Below, one piece after another: positions 5,125-14,195 of a DNA stretch of 64,000 nt. Source of the DNA: an uncultured Fibrobacterota bacterium (GTDB lineage: Bacteria; Fibrobacterota; Chitinivibrionia; Chitinivibrionales; CAYFVL01). Below the pieces are notes generated by a model, which did no database searches, had not been told where the DNA came from, and saw only the letters and a program-made list of their open reading frames with translations. Location: the NCBI GenBank assembly GCA_964419255.1, contig CAYQOU010000006.1:1167-65166 (forward strand), written 5' to 3'. The stretch's first letter is position 1; the number at the start of each line of letters is the position of its first letter. Position numbers and translations under genes: made by a program.

Positions 5125-7401
5125 TCAGGTATAAAGCATACGATTGGGTCTCTTCATAACCGTCAAATTTAATTCTTCACACAAATCAGCTGCGCTGCCG
5201 CCGCCTATTGAAACGCCATCGATACGGTGCACCGAAACCACACCCATGAGCGCATTGGTCATGAAAACGCAATCGGCTTTTTTCAGTTCATCAAGGGTTA
5301 TGAGGCGCGTTTCTACGGTTTCGCCCCGGGATTGCAGTAGATCGCACACTGCTTTTTCCATCGTTCCGGGAAGTACATGTTCCGAGGCAGGCCGATACCA
5401 GATACCGTCGATTATACAGAGAATATTTGCCGTAGCAGTCTCACTCACTGAGCCGTCATAGTTTAGTATAATCGCCTCATCCGCTCCCTGTTTTTTGGCC
5501 CATTGGTTGGCTATTTTGCTAAACATATAATTCATGGTTTTATGAGAAGACAGATGAGAGTACCTCCTGTTCGGATAAGCGGCACAATACAGCCCGTCCC
5601 TTCCGACAGTTTTCAGACGATGAACGTATGGCCGGGCAGTAACCATCATCGACATGGTATCTGGCTTACCCGATTCTCCGGCCGCTGCAAGTACCTTTAC
5701 AGCAGCGACATCTTCGTACAGTCCGCTACGATCAATGACCTGGCGTATAATATCATTCCAGGTAACATCGGGCGGTTCTGTCCCGAAAAAGTGCTGCCAG
5801 GATTTGTTAAACCGCTGGAGGTGCTGCTCCAGACGGCAGGGCACACCGTTTTGGACACGTATGGTTTCGAATATTCCGTACCCGTAAACAAATCCATCGC
5901 CGGTAACCGGCGCACTGATGCCCTCCAACGGCATGAACTTTCCATTGTACCATGCGATGAGGGAAGGCTTTTTACTTTTCGCGGATACTCCGCTGATTGC
6001 ATGCATCAGTGTCTGCCCCTTATGCAGCGTCTCTTCGAATTCGTCGGCCGGATCCGAATCGTACACGATACCGCCTCCAACAGAATACACAAGTCTACTG
6101 TCCTTGATTGTAGCTGTACGGATAGCGATTGACAGGTCCATTGTATCATGAAAACCAATATAGCCGATAGATCCGGTGTAGATATGACGTCGGACCGGTT
6201 CGAGTTCATCTATAATTTCCATAGATCTGATCTTCGGACAACCGGTAATCGATCCACCCGGAAACGTTGCACGAACCAAATCGACCATATCCTTATCATC
6301 GTCAAGCACACCATCAATGATAGAAACTAGATGGAATACATTTTCGTATGCTTCCACGCGCTTATGCTCACGCACCTTCACCGATCCGGCCGAGCAGACC
6401 TTCCCGATATCATTTCGTAAAAGATCAACAATCATCGACAGCTCGGCATCATCTTTACGGCTGTTTGCAAGCTGGTCCCGGTTGGCGGCGTCCTCCTGTG
6501 GTGTTTTACCCCTGGGTTTAGTACCCTTGATCGGACGGGTTTCAACACGTCTCCCACGAGCTTCAATGAATCGTTCCGGTGAAGTGGAAACGATATGATG
6601 ATCACCGGCATTAATGTAGGCAAAAAAAGGTGCCGGATTTCGTTGAAAGAGGGTAGAAAAAAGTGTGAAAGCATCGCCTTTAAAAGCCGTTTCGAACCGT
6701 TGAGACATGTTTACCTGATACACATGGCCGCGTGCGATATAATCACGTATAGTTTCGATCGAACGCATATATTCATCACGAGCGAAACCGGATTTCAAAC
6801 CGGTGCCGGTCTCGGGAGGTTTTGCTGCGCCCGCTGACACACCTTTTCTCAAGGCATACTCAAAAGATTCTATACGCTGTTGCGCATTACCGGCGGTCTC
6901 AGAAACGTATAGTGTTTTCTTTTTCTCAAAACGATCTTCAACTAAAATTATCGATGGTGCAACCATATACAGATGAGGCAGATGTAAATCCTCTATACTT
7001 GTCCTGGGAAGAACTTCTATGCAATCTTTCAGATCATAGGATAGGTAACCCATTAGACCGGCGCAAATCGGAAGCGGATATTCGGTGTCCGGCAATTTGT
7101 AGTACCGACATATGTATTGCAAAAAATTCAGAGGATCAGCCTCTATAGTCTTTGAGCATCGTTCCGATTCAATTGTTACACGATTCAGATCTGCTTTTAA
7201 TGAAAGCCACGGATGTATGCCCATGATATTGTATCGGGCACAATCGGCAGCTCCACCGCTGATGAGCGTGACGGTTCCGGGAAGGTGAGCAAATCTCGAT
7301 GCGATCTCAAGAAATGAAAGACCACTTTGCAAAGCAATCGAAACCACACGATGCGAAGGTTGGGGTAAAAATTCAAGTATCGACTCAAAAGAAGTAGTCA
7401 T
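5125..7401 (-). CDS. pabB: Aminodeoxychorismate synthase component I (PabB) fused to a class-IV aminotransferase-fold aminodeoxychorismate lyase (PabC)
   Basis: 758 aa. Chorismate-utilising enzyme motifs are present: HVYQVNMSQRF, SPERFIEARGRRVETRPIKGTKPRG, TFPGGSITGCPK. The C-terminal ~270 aa are class-IV like (GDGFVYGYGIFETIRV, VLPGTMEKAV). The start overlaps the pabA stop by 4 nt. Confidence 0.88.
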   Translation of the reverse strand: MTTSFESILEFLPQPSHRVVSIALQSGLSFLEIASRFAHLPGTVTLISGGAADCARYNIMGIHPWLSLKADLNRVTIESERCSKTIEADPLNFLQYICRYYKLPDTEYPLPICAGLMGYLSYDLKDCIEVLPRTSIEDLHLPHLYMVAPSIILVEDRFEKKKTLYVSETAGNAQQRIESFEYALRKGVSAGAAKPPETGTGLKSGFARDEYMRSIETIRDYIARGHVYQVNMSQRFETAFKGDAFTLFSTLFQRNPAPFFAYINAGDHHIVSTSPERFIEARGRRVETRPIKGTKPRGKTPQEDAANRDQLANSRKDDAELSMIVDLLRNDIGKVCSAGSVKVREHKRVEAYENVFHLVSIIDGVLDDDKDMVDLVRATFPGGSITGCPKIRSMEIIDELEPVRRHIYTGSIGYIGFHDTMDLSIAIRTATIKDSRLVYSVGGGIVYDSDPADEFEETLHKGQTLMHAISGVSAKSKKPSLIAWYNGKFMPLEGISAPVTGDGFVYGYGIFETIRVQNGVPCRLEQHLQRFNKSWQHFFGTEPPDVTWNDIIRQVIDRSGLYEDVAAVKVLAAAGESGKPDTMSMMVTARPYVHRLKTVGRDGLYCAAYPNRRYSHLSSHKTMNYMFSKIANQWAKKQGADEAIILNYDGSVSETATANILCIIDGIWYRPASEHVLPGTMEKAVCDLLQSRGETVETRLITLDELKKADCVFMTNALMGVVSVHRIDGVSIGGGSAADLCEELNLTVMKRPNRMLYT

Positions 7402-7988
7402 GTCAATCGCTCCTGAAGCGGACCCATTCTGAGAAAATTCTCGATGATTGTAAATCCATTCTCTGTAAGAAAGCTTTCCGGGTGAAACTGTACGCCATGA
7501 AGCGGAAAGACGCGGTGGGATAAGCCCATAACAACGCGATCCTCTGATCGTGCGGTGACTACCAGTTCTTTACTAACCTTATCAGCTGCAAGCGAGTGGT
7601 AACGGGCAACTATGGTGGGCAACCCGACTCCTTTGAAAAGCCCCGTTTGATTGTGTTCCACAGCACAGGTCTTGCCATGCATAGGCAAAGGTGCTCGAAC
7701 AGTTATTCCACCAAATGCTTCGTTGATACACTGCAAGCCCAGACAGACGCCAAGAATCGGAGTAGATTTGTATAATCGAAGGATTAAGTCAATAGAAATA
7801 CCGGCCGATGAGGGATCTTTGGGTCCCGGGCTGATAACAATATAATCAGGTGATCGTTGAGCTACGTCCTCGACCGAAATCTTATCTGCCCTGAATACAG
7901 ATACATCAATAGGATATGTACGAAACATCTGCACTAGATTAAAAGTGAATGAGTCGTAATTATCTATAACAAGTAGTGACCGATTCAT
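7398..7988 (-). CDS. pabA: Aminodeoxychorismate/anthranilate synthase component II (glutamine amidotransferase)
   Basis: 196 aa: LLVIDNYDSFTFNLVQMF, catalytic Cys in ILGVCLGLQC, and HGVQFHPES. Lies 12 nt downstream of the NRPS stop and overlaps pabBC. Confidence 0.9.
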   Translation of the reverse strand: MNRSLLVIDNYDSFTFNLVQMFRTYPIDVSVFRADKISVEDVAQRSPDYIVISPGPKDPSSAGISIDLILRLYKSTPILGVCLGLQCINEAFGGITVRAPLPMHGKTCAVEHNQTGLFKGVGLPTIVARYHSLAADKVSKELVVTARSEDRVVMGLSHRVFPLHGVQFHPESFLTENGFTIIENFLRMGPLQERLT

Positions 7989-8000
7989 TATCCACTTCCC

Positions 8001-11000
8001 TTACAACATAGTATACCCGCCATCGACGGGCAGGTATGTTCCTGTCATGAATTGAGAAAGATCACTTGCAAGAAAGAGTATGGCACCGGCGATATCACGC
8101 GGAAGTCCATTGCGCTGCAACGGGCAATTGGTAGCTGCAGTTTCTTTGATTTTGTTTGACATCGCCGCGGTCGCATCTGTTAAAGTTAATCCGGGAGCAA
8201 CAGTATTAATACGAACCCCATCCGGCCCCAGCTCAATAGCCAATGATCGTACGAATGCGTCAAGTGCCGATTTCGCAGCACTATGTGCGGCATACCCGGG
8301 ATGAGGATGTTTAGACATAGTGCTGGAGACGGCAATTATGCTGCCACTTTTCCGTTCGGCCATTTCAGGAATAACCTCTTGGGAAAGCAGAAAGAGCGAT
8401 TTAATTTCGTTTGTCAGTTTACGCTCGAATTCAATCCAGTTGCTCTCCTTAAACGGCTTGATTTCAAAACCGATTGCAGCGTTAGAGACGACTACGTCGA
8501 TTTTTCCATAATGACCGCGCACCTTTTCAATGAGGGACTTTACCTCCTTCGGGTCAGTCGTATCCCCTTGAAATATTTCGGCCTCTCCGCCATCCTCCTG
8601 AATGATCTCCTTTACCATCATTGCACGTTCTTCACTCTTCAGATAGTTAACAGCCACCGACGCACCCTGACTTGCAAGAAGGCGTACCGTGGCCCTGCCG
8701 ATACCACGGCTTCCACCGGTCACGAGCACAACTTTATTTTCGAGAAGTCCGGGTGCCCGCACCTGACTGATGTTGAACCCGCTTGTCCGGGTCTTTTCAA
8801 TGAATGTATCGCCATCGTCGTCTGGGGATTTATACGCATCATCCAGGCTTTCCGCAATTTCATTGAGATGAGGATATTTGAAAATATGCGAAAGACCAAT
8901 TTCTACTCCCAGGTGTTCCTTGATTCTTGCAATTAGACGAGTCGCTGACAGAGAATGGCCTCCCAGTTCAAAGAAATGAGCCCGCTTTCCGATACTGTCT
9001 TCTGCAATTTCTAGCACTTCCGACCACAACTCGGCAAGCGTCCGCTCCATTTTGGTTGTGGGAGCCTCATAGATATCACTCTGCTGAAGGATGCCGGAGG
9101 AAATTGTTAGTGCTTTACGATTAAGCTTCCCATTTGGTAATTTTGGCATCTCATCCAGGGTGATAAAAGCGGTGGGAACCATATAGGAAGGCAGTCTTTG
9201 ATCGAGGAATGCCCGTAATTGACTGATATCAATATTGTTATCCGGCTTTGGGATATAGAATGCAAGCAGCTGCCCCTTTTCTCCAACCACCGCCCGTAAG
9301 CCCATTCCCTCAAATTCACCCATCACCTTTTCCACATGGCGCACATCAACGCGAAATCCTCTAACCTTTACCTGGAAATCCCACCGCCCCATAAATTCCA
9401 GATTTCCGTCAGGAAGATAACGTACAACATCTCCAGTATTATAAATGATACCGCCATGTTCCTTACTGAATGGGTTTTGCTTGAACCGTTCCTTTGTGAT
9501 ATCGTCCAGATTATGATACCCCAGAGCCATGCCAGCTGACGCCACATGTGCTTCACCGGGTACTCCTTCCGGAACAGGTCGTCCCTGGCGATCAAGCACA
9601 TATATTTTTGTGTTCTGGATCGGTCTACCTACGGGCACAAAGCCCTGCGCGTCATCGAAATCGGTGGCATCGTAGTAGGCGATATCGTTAAGCTCGGTAC
9701 ATCCATAGTTGTTAAGCAATCGAGCCTGGGGAATGACAGATCGAAACAGTAATACGATTTCGGCGGTAAGTGGCTCCCCGGCAGTAAAACAGTAACGCAG
9801 GGAAGGAAGTGTAATGCCGGTCTTTTTCATATACGCAAGGACAGATTGCATATGTGAAGGGACCAGATTTACCCGGCTCGCATTACATTTACGAAGTGCG
9901 TCAACAAACAGGGACGGATCTTTAACCGTCTCAGTGTCAATAAAAATCAGCGGGCAGCCATTAAGCAATCCGGCAAAAATTTCTTTCACCGAAACGGCAA
10001 AAGCAATGGTAGTCTTCTGTACGATCATTTCATCGTCAGCAAAAGGCCACCTGGTTTCCATATTACTCAGCCAATTTATAAGCTGCCTGTGCGGTATTCT
10101 CGCGCCCTTTGGTATACCGGTCGAACCGGATGTGTACATCAGATATGCCAGATCATCCGGCCTTATTGATACAGTGGTCGGTGCAGGAATCTCATCATGA
10201 AAAAGCGGTAGCTTCTCCTCAACAACACAGCACGTATCCTTCGTCAGGCCAAATTGCTTTTTCTGCTTTTCTGTACATATGGTCAGTCTCGGATCGGCAT
10301 CCCGGGTAATCAGACGTAAATACTTTTCCGGATAGGATGGATCAAGGGGAACGTAGGCCGCCCCGGCTTTCCATATCGCGAGAATAGCCGCCAGTGCGGA
10401 GGCATTTCGTTCCATGCAAACAGCAACGATCTCACCCGGTTTCACGCCACGCTGAAGCAGTGTCGCCGCATATGCGTTTGCAGCCGCGGCTACATCCCTA
10501 AAGCGCCATTGTCCAAAAGAATCCAGGCAGGCAATGGCATCGGGCGTTTTAGCCACCTGTTCATCCCAACGGGTAACAAAATCAGGAAGATTTTCAATCG
10601 ACCGATTCGTCTGATTGAATTCTACAAACAAACGCCGGCGATCCGCTTCGGTAAACATTGTCAATTCAGACAGCTTTCTCTTGCCATTTTCCATCATCTC
10701 GCGCAGCAGTTGTTCATGATGTTTCAAGATATTTTTCAGAGTAGATGCATTATATAAATCCGAAGCATACATCACCTCGACTTGCAGGTCATTTCTGTTT
10801 CCGGTGTATGACAACTCGATTTCACATCGTGCGATAGCATTCTTACCCGTTGCCGTTCGGTATCCTTCATAGCCGGGGTATGAGCCAAACTTGACACCTC
10901 CGGGAAGAGAATGCTCAAGATGGGTTCGGGGAAAGTTCTGGTGACGGATAACCAGTGGTACAAGCGAACTCGTTGCATCACCGCGCTCAACCGCCGAAGA

Positions 11001-12017
11001 ATAGACGATGCGCTCGAAAGGTACGGTCTGATGATCAAAACCGCCAAGAGCAACCGAGCGCACTGCACCCATAAAATCATCGACAGTCACATCTTCGTCA
11101 ACAAAAATTCGCAATGGAAGTATGTTGACAAAAAAACCGATCATTCTTTCAACCTCCGGAAGAATCCTGCCGGAGGTTGTCGTTCCGATGCAAAGATCTT
11201 CCTTACCGGTATAACGTTTGACAGTCAATGCAAATCCGGCAAGAAGACACATAAACATCGTACACCCATGGGATTGGGCAAACCTTTCCAGTGATTCTGA
11301 AAACTCCTTGGGATAAGAATACTCCAACCTCTCACTGATACTGCCGCTGTTTGGGGTCCGCAGAAAATCGGTAGGTAATTCCAGTGATGCTTCATATCCC
11401 TCAAGGTGTTTGTGCCAATAGGCCAAATCTTTTGAATGATCAAGTTGTCTCTGCCAGTGAACAAAATCTGTATATTGAACGGGTAGTGACTCCAGCTGAT
11501 GATGCCGCCCGGCCGAAAAAGCTTCATAGAGATGCAGTAACTCAGAGAAAAGGATATTCTCTACAGACCATCCATCTGCGGCGATATGATGCACATTTAG
11601 AAGCAACAGGTGACGTTTCGGATTGATTCTGAGAAGCACACCCCTGATGATTGGCCCTTTCTCAAGATCAAATACATGGCGTGCGTTTTCTTCGATGTAA
11701 CCTTGAATGTCGCTTTCATCAATGTCGATAAGAGGTAGTGAAAAGTCGCTCCTTTCTGTGATTATCTGCACCATTTCCCCATGAGCATTTGTCGTAAAAC
11801 ATGCCCTCAACGTTTCATGCCGATTCAGTATTTCTGTAAGACTCCTGTTTAAAGCAGAAACATCCAGGCTTCCTTCAAGAACAAACACCACGGGAATATC
11901 ATAGCTGAGGTCCTGGGGATTTTTACGTTTAAGCAACCACATCCTCTCCTGAAACCATGAGAGTGGATGTTCTTTGGCCTCCCGTTTAACCGGTACTATA
12001 GTCGTTCTTTGAGTCAT
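8001..12017 (-). CDS. Single-module non-ribosomal peptide synthetase: condensation - adenylation - carrier protein - C-terminal SDR (FabL/FabI-like) domain
   Basis: C domain: SWFQERMWLL, RHETLRACF, HHIAADGWS. A domain: WKAGAAYVPLD, LAYLMYTSGSTGIPKG, A4 = IAFAVSVKEIF, NNYGCTE, YNTGDVVRY, GRWDFQVKVRGFRV, NGKLNRKAL. T domain: FFELGGHSLS. SDR: VVLVTGGSRGIG, SNAAIG, GYAAHSAAKSAL. The track ORF starts at TTG 12041; ATG 12017 with a GGAGG 9 nt upstream is more likely. Confidence 0.92.
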   Translation of the reverse strand: MTQRTTIVPVKREAKEHPLSWFQERMWLLKRKNPQDLSYDIPVVFVLEGSLDVSALNRSLTEILNRHETLRACFTTNAHGEMVQIITERSDFSLPLIDIDESDIQGYIEENARHVFDLEKGPIIRGVLLRINPKRHLLLLNVHHIAADGWSVENILFSELLHLYEAFSAGRHHQLESLPVQYTDFVHWQRQLDHSKDLAYWHKHLEGYEASLELPTDFLRTPNSGSISERLEYSYPKEFSESLERFAQSHGCTMFMCLLAGFALTVKRYTGKEDLCIGTTTSGRILPEVERMIGFFVNILPLRIFVDEDVTVDDFMGAVRSVALGGFDHQTVPFERIVYSSAVERGDATSSLVPLVIRHQNFPRTHLEHSLPGGVKFGSYPGYEGYRTATGKNAIARCEIELSYTGNRNDLQVEVMYASDLYNASTLKNILKHHEQLLREMMENGKRKLSELTMFTEADRRRLFVEFNQTNRSIENLPDFVTRWDEQVAKTPDAIACLDSFGQWRFRDVAAAANAYAATLLQRGVKPGEIVAVCMERNASALAAILAIWKAGAAYVPLDPSYPEKYLRLITRDADPRLTICTEKQKKQFGLTKDTCCVVEEKLPLFHDEIPAPTTVSIRPDDLAYLMYTSGSTGIPKGARIPHRQLINWLSNMETRWPFADDEMIVQKTTIAFAVSVKEIFAGLLNGCPLIFIDTETVKDPSLFVDALRKCNASRVNLVPSHMQSVLAYMKKTGITLPSLRYCFTAGEPLTAEIVLLFRSVIPQARLLNNYGCTELNDIAYYDATDFDDAQGFVPVGRPIQNTKIYVLDRQGRPVPEGVPGEAHVASAGMALGYHNLDDITKERFKQNPFSKEHGGIIYNTGDVVRYLPDGNLEFMGRWDFQVKVRGFRVDVRHVEKVMGEFEGMGLRAVVGEKGQLLAFYIPKPDNNIDISQLRAFLDQRLPSYMVPTAFITLDEMPKLPNGKLNRKALTISSGILQQSDIYEAPTTKMERTLAELWSEVLEIAEDSIGKRAHFFELGGHSLSATRLIARIKEHLGVEIGLSHIFKYPHLNEIAESLDDAYKSPDDDGDTFIEKTRTSGFNISQVRAPGLLENKVVLVTGGSRGIGRATVRLLASQGASVAVNYLKSEERAMMVKEIIQEDGGEAEIFQGDTTDPKEVKSLIEKVRGHYGKIDVVVSNAAIGFEIKPFKESNWIEFERKLTNEIKSLFLLSQEVIPEMAERKSGSIIAVSSTMSKHPHPGYAAHSAAKSALDAFVRSLAIELGPDGVRINTVAPGLTLTDATAAMSNKIKETAATNCPLQRNGLPRDIAGAILFLASDLSQFMTGTYLPVDGGYTML

Positions 12018-12068
12018 TGTACATTTGCCTCCGAAAAGCAAATCGTGTTGCTTTCTCCATTAAATATC

Positions 12069-12094
12069 TGAATTAAATATCTGATGCTGATTAA
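12069..12094. repeat. Perfect tandem duplication of a 13-nt unit (ATTAAATATCTGA x2) just upstream of the NRPS start
   Basis: Read directly: 12069-12081 and 12082-12094 are identical and abutting. They lie ~50 nt upstream of ATG 12017, inside a ~575-nt AT-rich untranslated region. Confidence 0.9.
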
Positions 12095-12593
12095 CGAAAT
12101 TATATAATAAGTGCTTAATTTCAGTGATGTTATCCTAAACAAATCATTCTTTATTATGAGCACGATACATGATCTTCGTCGATATATCATTCTACCAGTA
12201 TCGCACAAGTTACCAAAATCAAGGTGCTGTATTCAATCACTCTTAAGAATCTGTAACCTTTTTGTTCCAAAGGTAGTCCAGAGCTGTGATGATAAATCGT
12301 TCAATTATACATGCGGATACTGCAGTTATTTATACTCACTCACAATTGGCCACGATCCGTTTCGGCTATGTAAAATACCTATTTAACTCCATGAAAAAGC
12401 AATATATATCCTGCCTGTTTGTGAGGGACATTGGATGAGAATGAGATATTACGAAATTCACTCGCAAAAGAGCATACATCTCCTCTGATAAGCTTATCTA
12501 TCAGTTAGACTTATCATTCTATGTCTTCTCGATTAGCAAAAAGTAAATACTGCGCACAATTAGGCGGTGTTTGGATACCCGGGATCTTCCCGA

Positions 12594-14195
12594 TCAATGA
12601 TTCCTCTCCCCCTCTCCCATTATTTTCACCAGTACTTCTTTTATCTGATCGAAGCCAAAGGGCTTTTGCAGAAAGCCTTTGGCGCCATTCTCGATTGCAT
12701 GTTGTACGTTTTCAGTCAGCGTGTAGCCCGAAACCATGATAGCATTGATTTGCGGGTCGATTTCCTTGAGTTTAAAAAAAGTTCTCCCACCATCCATACC
12801 CGGCATAACCATGTCAATAAATACCGCCCGTATATCTCTGTGTTTATCTCGAAACACAGATACTGCCTCTTCTCCACTGTCCGCAACCATGACGCTATAA
12901 CCCAGAGAGCTGATCATATCCTTTATGGTCTGCGATACATCCCTGTCATCGTCTACTATCAGAATTTGCTCTTCTCGAACACTATTCAGAAATACATTCT
13001 TCTTTTTATCACCAGCTGAAACCTTATTGGTGATCGGCAGATACAGGTTGAAGGTAGTCCCTTTTCCTAATGTACTATCCACGGTAATCGCCCCACCATG
13101 ACTCTTGGCAATTCCATATACGGCGGCCAACCCCATACCGGTGCCCTTATTTTCCTTTTTTGTGGTGAAAAACGGTTCAAAAATATGGTCCAACACATCT
13201 TTCTCGATTCCGGTTCCGGTATCCTTTACCGAAACTACTACATAATTGCCAGTCTGAAAGGTAAAGCTCAGATCCCTGCCGAAATTCTGATCAAGGTGTT
13301 GGTTGAATGTTTCGATGGTTAGAATGCCACCATCGGGCATTGCATCTCGGGCGTTAAGTGCAAGATTCAGAATTGCATTCTGCAGATGTGAAGCACCGCC
13401 CCAGACATAGGGAGAAGCCGCTTCAGTCAACGATTGAATAGTAATATTCTTTTGCATGCTTCTGTTAAGCAGGTTTATCGTTTCGACGACTATACTGTTG
13501 ATATCAACCACCTGCTGATCATACATCCCCTGCCTGGAGAAAGCCAGAAGCTGTTTCGTTAAATCGGCGGATCTTTTACCCGAGTTATAAATCTGATTGA
13601 GTACCCTCTTAGCCTCCGAGCTCATTTCATGTCTGTTCAGAAGAAACTCACAATATCCCTGAATGATTGTCAGATGGTTATTGAAATCGTGAGCAACACC
13701 ACCGGCAAGCTGCCCGACCGCTTCCATTTTTTCTATCTGATGCAGCCGGGCATTGGCTTTCTCAAGCTCCTGGGTCCTTTTTGAAACCATATCCTCAAGG
13801 TTATTCTTATATTCCTCCAATCTCCTCTCAGCCTTTAGTCGCTCGGTGTTCTCTTTTTGAAGTTTACGAATAAGGGAACTTATGGTACCGATCACTATTG
13901 CAAACAGTATATGCATAATATTGCCCAACACCGATTCCATACTGAGAATATCATACGTCTGTATGTTTATCGTCTCTATAATCGTTGCGGTCAGAAATCT
14001 ACTGATGGCATGCATGATAAGTCCGGGAATGATTCCCCACCACCAGGCGATAAAGAAAATCGGTATCAACCCCAGATTAGCCGCCATCGTGCTTTCTGCG
14101 GCAGCAAAAGACACCCAGAACGCCAGGGAATACAGAACCGACAGAATGACTATGGTTAATGTACAACTCCTGAGAGGTGGTTTAATGATACTCAT
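12594..14195 (-). CDS. Hybrid sensor histidine kinase / response regulator (membrane N-terminus, HisKA, HATPase, C-terminal REC)
   Basis: 533 aa. Four predicted TM helices with the WWWGIIPG motif, then a coiled coil. H-box VAHDFNNHLTII, N/G boxes LNLALNARDAMP, DTGTGI, GTGMGLA. REC: ILIVDDDRDV...VFIDMVMPGMDG. Confidence 0.9.
   Translation of the reverse strand: MSIIKPPLRSCTLTIVILSVLYSLAFWVSFAAAESTMAANLGLIPIFFIAWWWGIIPGLIMHAISRFLTATIIETINIQTYDILSMESVLGNIMHILFAIVIGTISSLIRKLQKENTERLKAERRLEEYKNNLEDMVSKRTQELEKANARLHQIEKMEAVGQLAGGVAHDFNNHLTIIQGYCEFLLNRHEMSSEAKRVLNQIYNSGKRSADLTKQLLAFSRQGMYDQQVVDINSIVVETINLLNRSMQKNITIQSLTEAASPYVWGGASHLQNAILNLALNARDAMPDGGILTIETFNQHLDQNFGRDLSFTFQTGNYVVVSVKDTGTGIEKDVLDHIFEPFFTTKKENKGTGMGLAAVYGIAKSHGGAITVDSTLGKGTTFNLYLPITNKVSAGDKKKNVFLNSVREEQILIVDDDRDVSQTIKDMISSLGYSVMVADSGEEAVSVFRDKHRDIRAVFIDMVMPGMDGGRTFFKLKEIDPQINAIMVSGYTLTENVQHAIENGAKGFLQKPFGFDQIKEVLVKIMGEGERNH

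Follow-up and report, generated by a model that had tools for sequence, protein, structure and literature searches.

A tyrosine-less classical short-chain dehydrogenase/reductase domain terminates a predicted p-aminobenzoate-loading nonribosomal peptide synthetase of Fibrobacterota

Introduction

Release of the products of nonribosomal peptide synthetases (NRPS) is thought to be covered by thioesterase (TE) domains, reductase (R) domains, terminal condensation domains and a few rarer domains. Here, we analyze an NRPS gene in a 64,000-nucleotide stretch of contig CAYQOU010000006.1 from an uncultured Fibrobacterota bacterium (hereafter, the window). The gene (8001..12041, on the minus strand, as are all window features described below) is an uninterrupted open reading frame of 1346 codons that encodes a single module with condensation (C), adenylation (A) and carrier (T) domains followed by a short-chain dehydrogenase/reductase (SDR) domain. 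This terminal classical-fold SDR domain (residues 1100–1346, 247 aa; 8004..8744) belongs to a family with a His/Gln-x3-Lys motif, and the presence of a Tyr-less classical SDR at this position of an NRPS is an uncharted case. Our literature searches turned up neither a C-A-T-SDR synthetase nor a bacterial SDR with a His-x3-Lys motif.

With respect to position, the closest described systems are the R domains of NRPS and carboxylic acid reductases, such as that of the C-A-T-R protein MxcG, which are likewise C-terminal NAD(P)H-binding Rossmann domains following a carrier and possibly do the same job. However, R domains are extended SDRs (NAD_binding_4, ~400 aa) with a Thr/Ser-Tyr-Lys triad, whereas the domain described here is a classical SDR of ~247 aa without the Tyr. 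With respect to sequence, the best matches are the FabG ketoreductases of Staphylococcus aureus (3OSU), Bacillus anthracis (2UVD) and Escherichia coli, with which the domain shares the TGxSRGIG motif, the catalytic Ser and Lys, the PG motif and the length. FabG acts on carrier-tethered substrates, and the SDR domain of the window protein adjoins a carrier. Unlike FabG, to which it is only 35–40% identical, this domain has His or Gln in place of the catalytic Tyr, Glu in place of the tetrad Asn, and the additional invariant residues Lys1208 and Tyr1336; it also falls into a separate clade (99% support) and scores under all FabG equivalog cut-offs.

The enoyl reductases FabL and FabI have the signatures Asn-Xn-Ser-Xn-Tyr-X6-Lys and Gx5SxA with Yx2Mx3K, respectively (PMC9260719). 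Like these enzymes, the window domain has an α-F helix of the form AK-x-AL-[DE]-A-x-x-R and a Tyr that stands seven positions ahead of the Lys and falls in their Tyr column, and it shares the classical TGxxxGxG motif with FabL. Unlike in FabL and FabI, most members of its family have Phe in this Tyr column, the Asn of FabL is replaced by Glu, and the Gx5SxA motif and internal Met of FabI are missing.

Two further systems are pertinent by chemistry and by substrate. The α subunit of petunia benzaldehyde synthase, an SDR outside the R class, converts benzoyl-CoA to the aldehyde with NADPH (PMC13418739). This enzyme is a chemical precedent for the reduction of an aryl thioester; unlike the window SDR, it keeps the Asn-Ser-Tyr-Lys tetrad, needs an inactive β subunit and uses a CoA ester. 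The p-aminobenzoic acid (PABA) modules of the albicidin, cystobactamid and lapcin synthetases share with the window protein Ala235 and the exact signature of PABA A domains. However, those assembly lines are multi-modular and end in a TE, whereas the window protein is a single C-A-T module with an atypical SDR end and no associated tailoring genes.

Results

Active-site columns of the terminal SDR domain

The SDR domain was aligned using MAFFT with FabG and FabI of E. coli K-12 and with a genome-derived FabL of Bacillus mojavensis, whose 458.6 bits clear the cut-off of the FabL equivalog (328); the alignment is ungapped from the catalytic Ser to the Lys. Ser1240 (8322..8324) occupies the catalytic Ser column (FabG Ser138, FabL Ser141), and Lys1257 (AAA, 8271..8273), the invariant catalytic and cofactor-ribose Lys, occupies the Lys column of all three reference enzymes. 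In contrast, the column of the canonical catalytic Tyr of SDRs (FabG Tyr151) contains His1253 (CAT, 8283..8285), an equivalence that recurs in the HMMER alignment to S. aureus FabG (3osu), and the column of the catalytic-tetrad Asn of FabG and FabL contains Glu1212. The latter residue (8406-8408) lies on helix α-E together with Lys1208 (8418-8420; the pair spans 8406..8420); neither residue varies within the family, and FabG, FabL and FabI have neither. The canonical Asn-Ser-Tyr-Lys tetrad is accordingly replaced by Glu1212-Ser1240-His1253-Lys1257 in the window protein and by E-S-(H/Q)-K in the family.

These substitutions are shared by the relatives of the domain. Among the 121 fused orthologues for which the SDR region was compared, column 1253 is occupied by His (93 sequences) or Gln (28). 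There is no exception to Lys1257 or Ser1239, and a single sequence departs from Ser at each of positions 1240 and 1243 (Ser in 120 of 121). Stand-alone relatives of the domain (n = 103) have His at column 1253 in 102 cases and likewise contain Lys1208, Glu1212, Ser1240, Lys1257 and Tyr1336, the last being a family-specific residue of the TGTYLPVDGG segment (8034..8036) that is Thr or Val in FabG-like SDRs. The 34 SDRs used for comparison, which include paralogues from the window's genome, have V/I, Asn, Ser, Gln, Tyr, Lys and Thr/Val in the signature columns.

The preliminary description of the locus had focused on Tyr1250 (TAT, 8292..8294), which together with His1253 and Lys1257 forms the motif PGYAAHSAAK, and had taken the Tyr-x6-Lys spacing as the mark of a FabI/FabL-type enzyme. 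Its reading of the sequence is accurate: the strings VVLVTGGSRGIG, VNY, SNAAIG and PGYAAHSAAKSALDAFVR all occur in the translation, the Tyr and Lys codons lie at the positions given for them, and Tyr1250 and Lys1257 align without gaps with Tyr151/Lys158 of FabL and Tyr156/Lys163 of FabI, so that Tyr-x6-Lys in place of Tyr-x3-Lys is exact. The interpretation does not survive comparison with the relatives, as column 1250 contains Phe in 75 of the 121 fused orthologues (62%), with Tyr in the remaining 46, and Phe in 99 of the 103 stand-alone proteins (96%). The preliminary description had itself proposed that its reading would fail if comparison with FabG-type enzymes put another residue, for example His, at the x3 distance from the Lys, and His1253 stands there. 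Given that most orthologues have Phe at column 1250, this residue cannot be the catalytic proton donor of the family. Tyr1250 is restricted to the window's own clade (codons TAT/TAC), and another family of the same phylum has Phe (TTC) in this column, with the TAY and TTC codons one base apart. In 27 of the 34 comparison SDRs the column contains Gln, and the Tyr-x6-Lys spacing is unusual for FabG-like SDRs. Judged by these columns, Tyr-x6-Lys is here a conservative, lineage-specific Phe-to-Tyr change and not the FabI/FabL catalytic signature; a motif taken from a single sequence may thus mislead until orthologues are compared. The extended FabL/FabI signature is also absent: the Asn column contains the invariant Glu1212, the glycine motif reads TGGSRGIG, and the residue four positions before the Lys is His and not Met.

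A signature for the family could be defined, and the window protein conforms to it: K-x3-E on helix α-E; SS-x2-S; G-[FY]-x-A-[HQ]-S-x-A-K-x-A-L-D-x-F-V-R; and T-G-x-Y-x-P-V-[DS]-G-G. Throughout, an aromatic residue, Phe or Tyr, precedes the Lys by seven residues. In the dinucleotide-binding motif TGGSRGIG (residues 1108–1115; 8697..8720), T, G, S, R, G and G are invariant across the family, and TGxSRGIG, Asn1132, Asp1160, Asn1187-Ala1188, Pro1283-Gly1284 and Thr1288 are invariant or nearly so. A stand-alone SDR on one metagenome contig (L127) has Lys1208, Glu1212 and Tyr1336 along with Leu in the His/Tyr column and Met in the column seven positions ahead of the Lys, which suggests that the Lys-Glu-Tyr trio may be the more fundamental feature of the family.

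Fold, profiles and phylogeny

In Pfam searches, the C-terminus of the NRPS matched adh_short_C2 (residues 1112–1344, E 4e-62) and, with a much lower score, the KR model (E 5e-13, 50 bits), and the 1346-aa protein had no match to a thioesterase or to the R-domain family NAD_binding_4 (PF07993). An AlphaFold2 model of residues 1088–1346, built on 49 homologues, has a mean pLDDT of 93.8 and a pTM of 0.91, and displays the seven-strand topology of classical SDRs; the Rossmann fold of ~250 aa, the TGxxxGxG motif and the PG motif are those expected of this class. The view that the NRPS ends in a classical SDR, and not in a TE or an extended-SDR R domain, is thereby borne out. The domain nevertheless has the location of an R domain, namely, directly after the carrier, at the C-terminus, with no TE following.

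Both structural and profile comparisons point to FabG-like enzymes. The best Foldseek matches of the model were ketoreductase, FabG and glucose dehydrogenase entries (TM 0.86–0.91), and a profile of the stand-alone family run against all PDB sequences placed FabGs on top, with a best E of only 2e-65, which implies that no member of the family has a solved structure. FabL and FabI were absent from the best 50 Foldseek matches and from the best 60 PDB profile matches. A search of the ESM Atlas yielded nothing more specific than generic SDR names. Pairwise identity of the window domain is 35% to E. coli FabG, 31% to FabL and 24% to FabI. Its scores against curated models were 214.8 bits for PRK07231, the highest-scoring one (cut-off 215), 198.9 bits for the FabG equivalog TIGR01830 (cut-off 297.75) and 182.6 bits for the FabL equivalog NF005975 (cut-off 328); no NCBIfam model reached its cut-off with either the fused or the stand-alone form of the domain.

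In an unrooted maximum-likelihood tree of 96 sequences with SH-aLRT support, the His/Gln-x3-Lys SDRs form one clade (99%), within which the fused domains nest among the stand-alone ones (99%). The FabG-like clade is separated from the family (85%), and FabI (100%) and FabL lie beyond a branch with 96% support; the family is thus a third lineage that meets the FabG-like clade and the enoyl-reductase branch at one node. The searches and the tree alike fail to support assignment to the FabI/FabL type, with both of these enzymes outside the family clade. By sequence, model and tree, the terminal SDR domain is placed beside FabG-like reductases as a separate clade.

Fused and stand-alone members of the family

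A search with the SDR region yielded 211 proteins of 740–2356 aa, of which the best 120 are all C-A-T-SDR proteins with 56–99% identity in the SDR domain; those with a named host belong to Chitinispirillaceae, Fibrobacteria, Polyangiaceae, Myxococcales and Sorangium. More than 200 near-full-length homologues of the synthetase were found, with 48–72% identity over 1340 aa. Some proteins seemed to lack the C domain (A-T-SDR), but these turned out to be truncated gene calls that start inside the C domain, and no other architecture was encountered. A scan of contigs using the full-length alignment, for which generic NRPS motifs were chosen, retrieved one true orthologue (locus L009). Three C-A-T-SDR homologues of the Gln variant (GFLAQSTAK; P0274, P0276 and P0119) are annotated in fungal assemblies, on contigs of 0.7–8.8 Mb, from Cercophora sp., Immersiella caudata and the chytrid Rhizophlyctis rosea. 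Their presence there suggests cross-kingdom transfer of the synthetase.

The SDR is the best conserved of the domains: orthologues are on average 64% identical to the window protein in the SDR domain, compared with 54% in C, 58% in A, 54% in T and 19.5% in the linker between T and SDR, and 28% of the SDR columns are invariant. Because the cofactor motif is conserved and the SDR is the best-conserved part of the protein, the domain is, on this comparative evidence, almost certainly functional.

A search with the SDR domain alone returned stand-alone proteins of ~248 aa that are 50–60% identical to it, compared with 35–40% for true FabGs, and the fused domain is, as its nesting in the tree indicates, a recruit from such enzymes. 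The source databases annotate the stand-alone proteins as FabG. In 33 of 401 sampled Bacteroidota genomes (2.0–3.1 Mb), the stand-alone form is present in a single copy and with 80–100% identity to the Chlorobaculum parvum protein; the databases name this group as Chlorobiaceae and Chlorobaculum. In the Chlorobaculum-like loci (L229-L234), the gene adjoins an Ogt-like gene and an RND efflux operon and is often divergent from a UbiA-family prenyltransferase gene, and in Paenibacillus (L208:9393-10142) it follows a MarR regulator and is located beside an MFS transporter gene. A metagenome scan with the stand-alone alignment was swamped by the generic TGASRGIG pattern, and the His motif was found in 0 of 80 loci.

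A housekeeping role for the stand-alone enzyme, as FabG or FabI of the Chlorobaculum-like genomes, was rejected: the family is neither because these genomes also carry a FabG (53–54% identity to E. coli FabG) and a FabI-like gene. The genome that contains the window (G000) differs, in that no FabI homologue was found there and the best FabI match is the SDR domain of the NRPS itself (59 bits). A FabK-like gene of this genome (C28:37327-38283; 227 bits against an equivalog cut-off of 453) probably encodes its housekeeping enoyl reductase.

A second rejected candidate function was that of the missing dihydrofolate reductase, for which we obtained no support in the case of the fused domain. FolP and FolC were found in the window's genome and in three Chlorobaculum-like genomes, and FolA was not. 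The idea was dropped because FolA is missing across almost the whole order, with or without the NRPS. FolA (PF00186) was not found in the window's genome, which is 95% complete, nor in most of the order (2 of 46 genomes in family f4), and two other families of the phylum have it in nearly every genome (76 of 78 and 21 of 22). One unpublished genome (G194), on which none of our conclusions depends, is included in the tally.

Domain organization and the PABA operon

The true start of the NRPS is probably the ATG at 12017 (residue 9, giving 1338 aa), because a 99% identical database protein is 1338 aa long. The C domain (residues 23–471; 10629..11975), assigned by Pfam, has an intact HHIAADGWS motif. 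It is followed by the A domain (residues 493–980; 9102..10565; Pfam AMP-binding at 493–843 and AMP-binding_C to 972), the carrier (T, peptidyl carrier protein) domain (residues 1001–1064; 8850..9041; Pfam PP-binding, GGHSL) and a poorly conserved linker of 35 residues (1065–1099; 8745..8849) that leads to the SDR domain. The long, AT-rich leader upstream of the gene (window positions 12042-12600) matched no Rfam family at E <= 1.

The A domain has the hallmarks of PABA specificity. Ala replaces Asp235, and the PABA-specific A-domain DNA signature ARAARA-N11-TTYGCNRT-N7-AARGAR has an exact match at 9981..10018, the only one in the window, with 0 expected by chance. The signature, given as 47 bp, is that used by Wang et al. 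2022 to select PABA-specific A domains (PMC8837603). Among the orthologues, F-A-V-S-V-K-E is invariant.

The supply of PABA appears to be encoded next to the synthetase. A pabA-like glutamine amidotransferase gene (7398..7988) starts 12 nt past the NRPS stop codon, and is followed by a pabB-pabC fusion (5125..7401) of aminodeoxychorismate synthase I with a lyase domain of the class IV aminotransferase fold, which scores above the cut-off of TIGR00553 (pabB). The NRPS-pabA-pabBC order is syntenic in 8 of the 9 loci examined, namely in seven Fibrobacterota genomes from three families and in one Polyangia metagenome-assembled genome; no further neighbor is common to more than close relatives. The Fibrobacterota operons encode no other release enzyme and no candidate free substrate. 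As far as gene content and order can tell, the NRPS, pabA and pabB-pabC genes are a self-contained three-gene unit for a conserved PABA-loading synthetase.

In the Polyangia genome, a gene for a BtrH_N + DUF4872 protein (L009:14055-15038) that is not present in the Fibrobacterota operons lies between the NRPS and pabA genes. The protein resembles the acyltransferase DarH (167 bits against a cut-off of 300) and is a candidate trans-acting off-loading enzyme. Apart from a TrpE-like gene (C27:19789-21081 in the window's genome), no PabB-like gene other than the pabB-pabC fusion of the operon was found in the window's genome or in its congener G061, and relatives without the NRPS have a separate PabB-like gene with an open frame of ~580–680 aa. 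Given that the operon carries the sole PabB-like gene, and with FolP and FolC present, it may also feed folate synthesis.

Discussion

On balance, we favor the view that the terminal SDR domain is active, binds NADP(H), has the classical fold and belongs to an undescribed E-S-(H/Q)-K family, sister to FabG-like reductases, and that it was recruited into a PABA-loading C-A-T-SDR synthetase. What the domain does there can be proposed only tentatively. One possibility is that the SDR off-loads the tethered 4-aminobenzoyl thioester, with or without an N-acyl group, by reduction with NADPH. Under this proposal, the A domain would load PABA on the carrier, the C domain, which has no partner module, would N-acylate the PABA amine, and the SDR would stand in for a TE or R domain by delivering the hydride of NADPH to the thioester carbonyl. 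The part of Ser1240 and His/Gln1253 would be to hydrogen-bond the oxyanion, not to supply a proton, and collapse of the thiohemiacetal would give an aryl aldehyde, which in the N-acylated case would leave as a stable N-acyl-4-aminobenzaldehyde. That position 1253 accommodates both His and Gln speaks for a donor of hydrogen bonds and not for a general acid, and we infer that an oxyanion hole made of Ser and His/Gln would suit hydride addition either to a thioester carbonyl or, with formation of an enolate, to an enoyl thioester. We rank reductive off-loading first because the tethered PABA has no enoyl bond and because the domain sits where R domains sit.

Several observations weigh against this assignment. 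To our knowledge, all characterized thioester reductases, including NRPS R domains, CCR and the α subunit of benzaldehyde synthase, keep the catalytic Tyr, and we know of no Tyr-less precedent; since the petunia enzyme keeps its Tyr, it does not provide a direct precedent for the proposal either. The stand-alone relatives lack any carrier-protein or NRPS context, being located near Ogt and RND efflux or MarR and MFS genes, so that the ancestral substrate need not have been a thioester. Finally, the BtrH/DarH-like gene of the Polyangia locus suggests release by acyl transfer there, in which case the SDR would be a tailoring domain. Our estimates for off-loading and its rivals leave the remaining probability to other chemistry.

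Among the rivals, the one that fares best, although we consider it rather unlikely, is an ordinary on-line ketoreductase in which His1253 would be the general acid for reduction of a keto group, for instance in a 3-oxoacyl chain that the C domain has placed on the PABA amine. Sequence, profile and fold all give FabG-type ketoreductases as the closest characterized relatives, Ser1240 and Lys1257 are still in place, His is able to donate a proton, and a C domain without a partner module may take its acyl donor from fatty-acid metabolism. However, His is replaced by Gln, which is no acid, in 28 of the 121 fused proteins and in the fungal homologues, the tetrad Asn is replaced as well, the score against the FabG equivalog is 199 bits against a cut-off of 298, and nothing in our data supports a keto-bearing donor.

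It is distinctly unlikely that the SDR acts in trans on a free small molecule, reducing a released aldehyde to the alcohol or an imine of the PABA amine, with the fusion serving co-expression or channeling. The reduction of an iminium requires no general acid, the linker between T and SDR is long and unconserved, and the stand-alone relatives (52–60% identity) keep all signature residues outside any carrier context. Against these points, the fusion is strictly kept as a single architecture in more than 200 proteins across phyla and in fungi, the domain is placed exactly as release domains are, and no candidate free substrate is encoded in the operon.

Quite improbable is a FabL/FabI-type enoyl reductase that would use Tyr1250 and Lys1257 to reduce an intermediate, enoyl or conjugated, bound to the neighboring carrier. 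Besides the gap-free match of these two residues to the FabL and FabI columns and the retention of Tyr1250 throughout the window's own clade (46 of 121 proteins), this assignment can draw on the α-F helix, which in the window protein (AKSALDAFVRSLA) is nearer to those of FabL (SKAALEALTRYLA) and FabI (AKASLEANVRYMA) than to that of FabG (AKAGLIGFSKSLA), on the score of the FabL model (183 bits), which is little under those of FabG models (199), and on FabI searches, in which the family is the best match after true FabI in Chlorobaculum-like genomes and the best match in the window's genome. This second-best rank arises because the α-F helix (AK-x-AL-D/E-A-x-x-R) is shared. However, column 1250 is predominantly Phe (75 of 121 orthologues, 99 of 103 stand-alone relatives), an invariant Glu replaces the Asn of the published FabL signature (PMC9260719), the FabL score is far under its cut-off of 328, neither enzyme is among the top structural and profile matches or branches within the family, and the substrate predicted to be loaded is aromatic PABA, with no enoyl bond.

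SDRs are obligate dimers or tetramers, redox-inactive SDR-fold R* domains occur in fungal PKS-NRPS enzymes, and here the acid/base Tyr and the tetrad Asn are both lost, yet an inert domain, serving as an oligomerization scaffold or NADPH-sensing module of an iterative PABA-condensing synthetase, is very improbable given that known R* domains have degenerate cofactor sites, whereas this domain is the best conserved of the protein, its cofactor-binding residues, Ser and Lys are invariant, and its signature is strongly constrained in the stand-alone enzymes (80–100% identity across 33 genomes).

Reductive off-loading would carry a broader implication, which we regard as doubtful: the His/Gln-x3-Lys SDRs could have evolved from FabG-like ancestors, independently of the extended-SDR R domains, into a second class of reductive release enzymes directed at carriers or thioesters. 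If so, such enzymes would combine a Ser and His/Gln oxyanion hole with the absence of a proton relay, and reduction would end at the aldehyde. The single-copy stand-alone members in Chlorobaculum-like genomes would then be acyl-thioester reductases, and the C-A-T-SDR synthetase with pabA-pabBC would make a metabolite of the 4-aminobenzaldehyde or N-acyl-4-aminobenzaldehyde type common to Fibrobacterota, Polyangia and some fungi.

The chief interest of this locus lies in the Tyr-less family and in a widespread orphan PABA synthetase rather than in the Tyr-x6-Lys spacing. A large family of stand-alone SDRs is routinely labeled FabG even though its members are unable to use the textbook mechanism, which matters for annotation and for SDR enzymology. 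The synthetase is found in Fibrobacterota, Myxococcota and fungi, and a PABA supply of its own nearly always accompanies it; a widespread PABA-derived metabolite is therefore its likely product.

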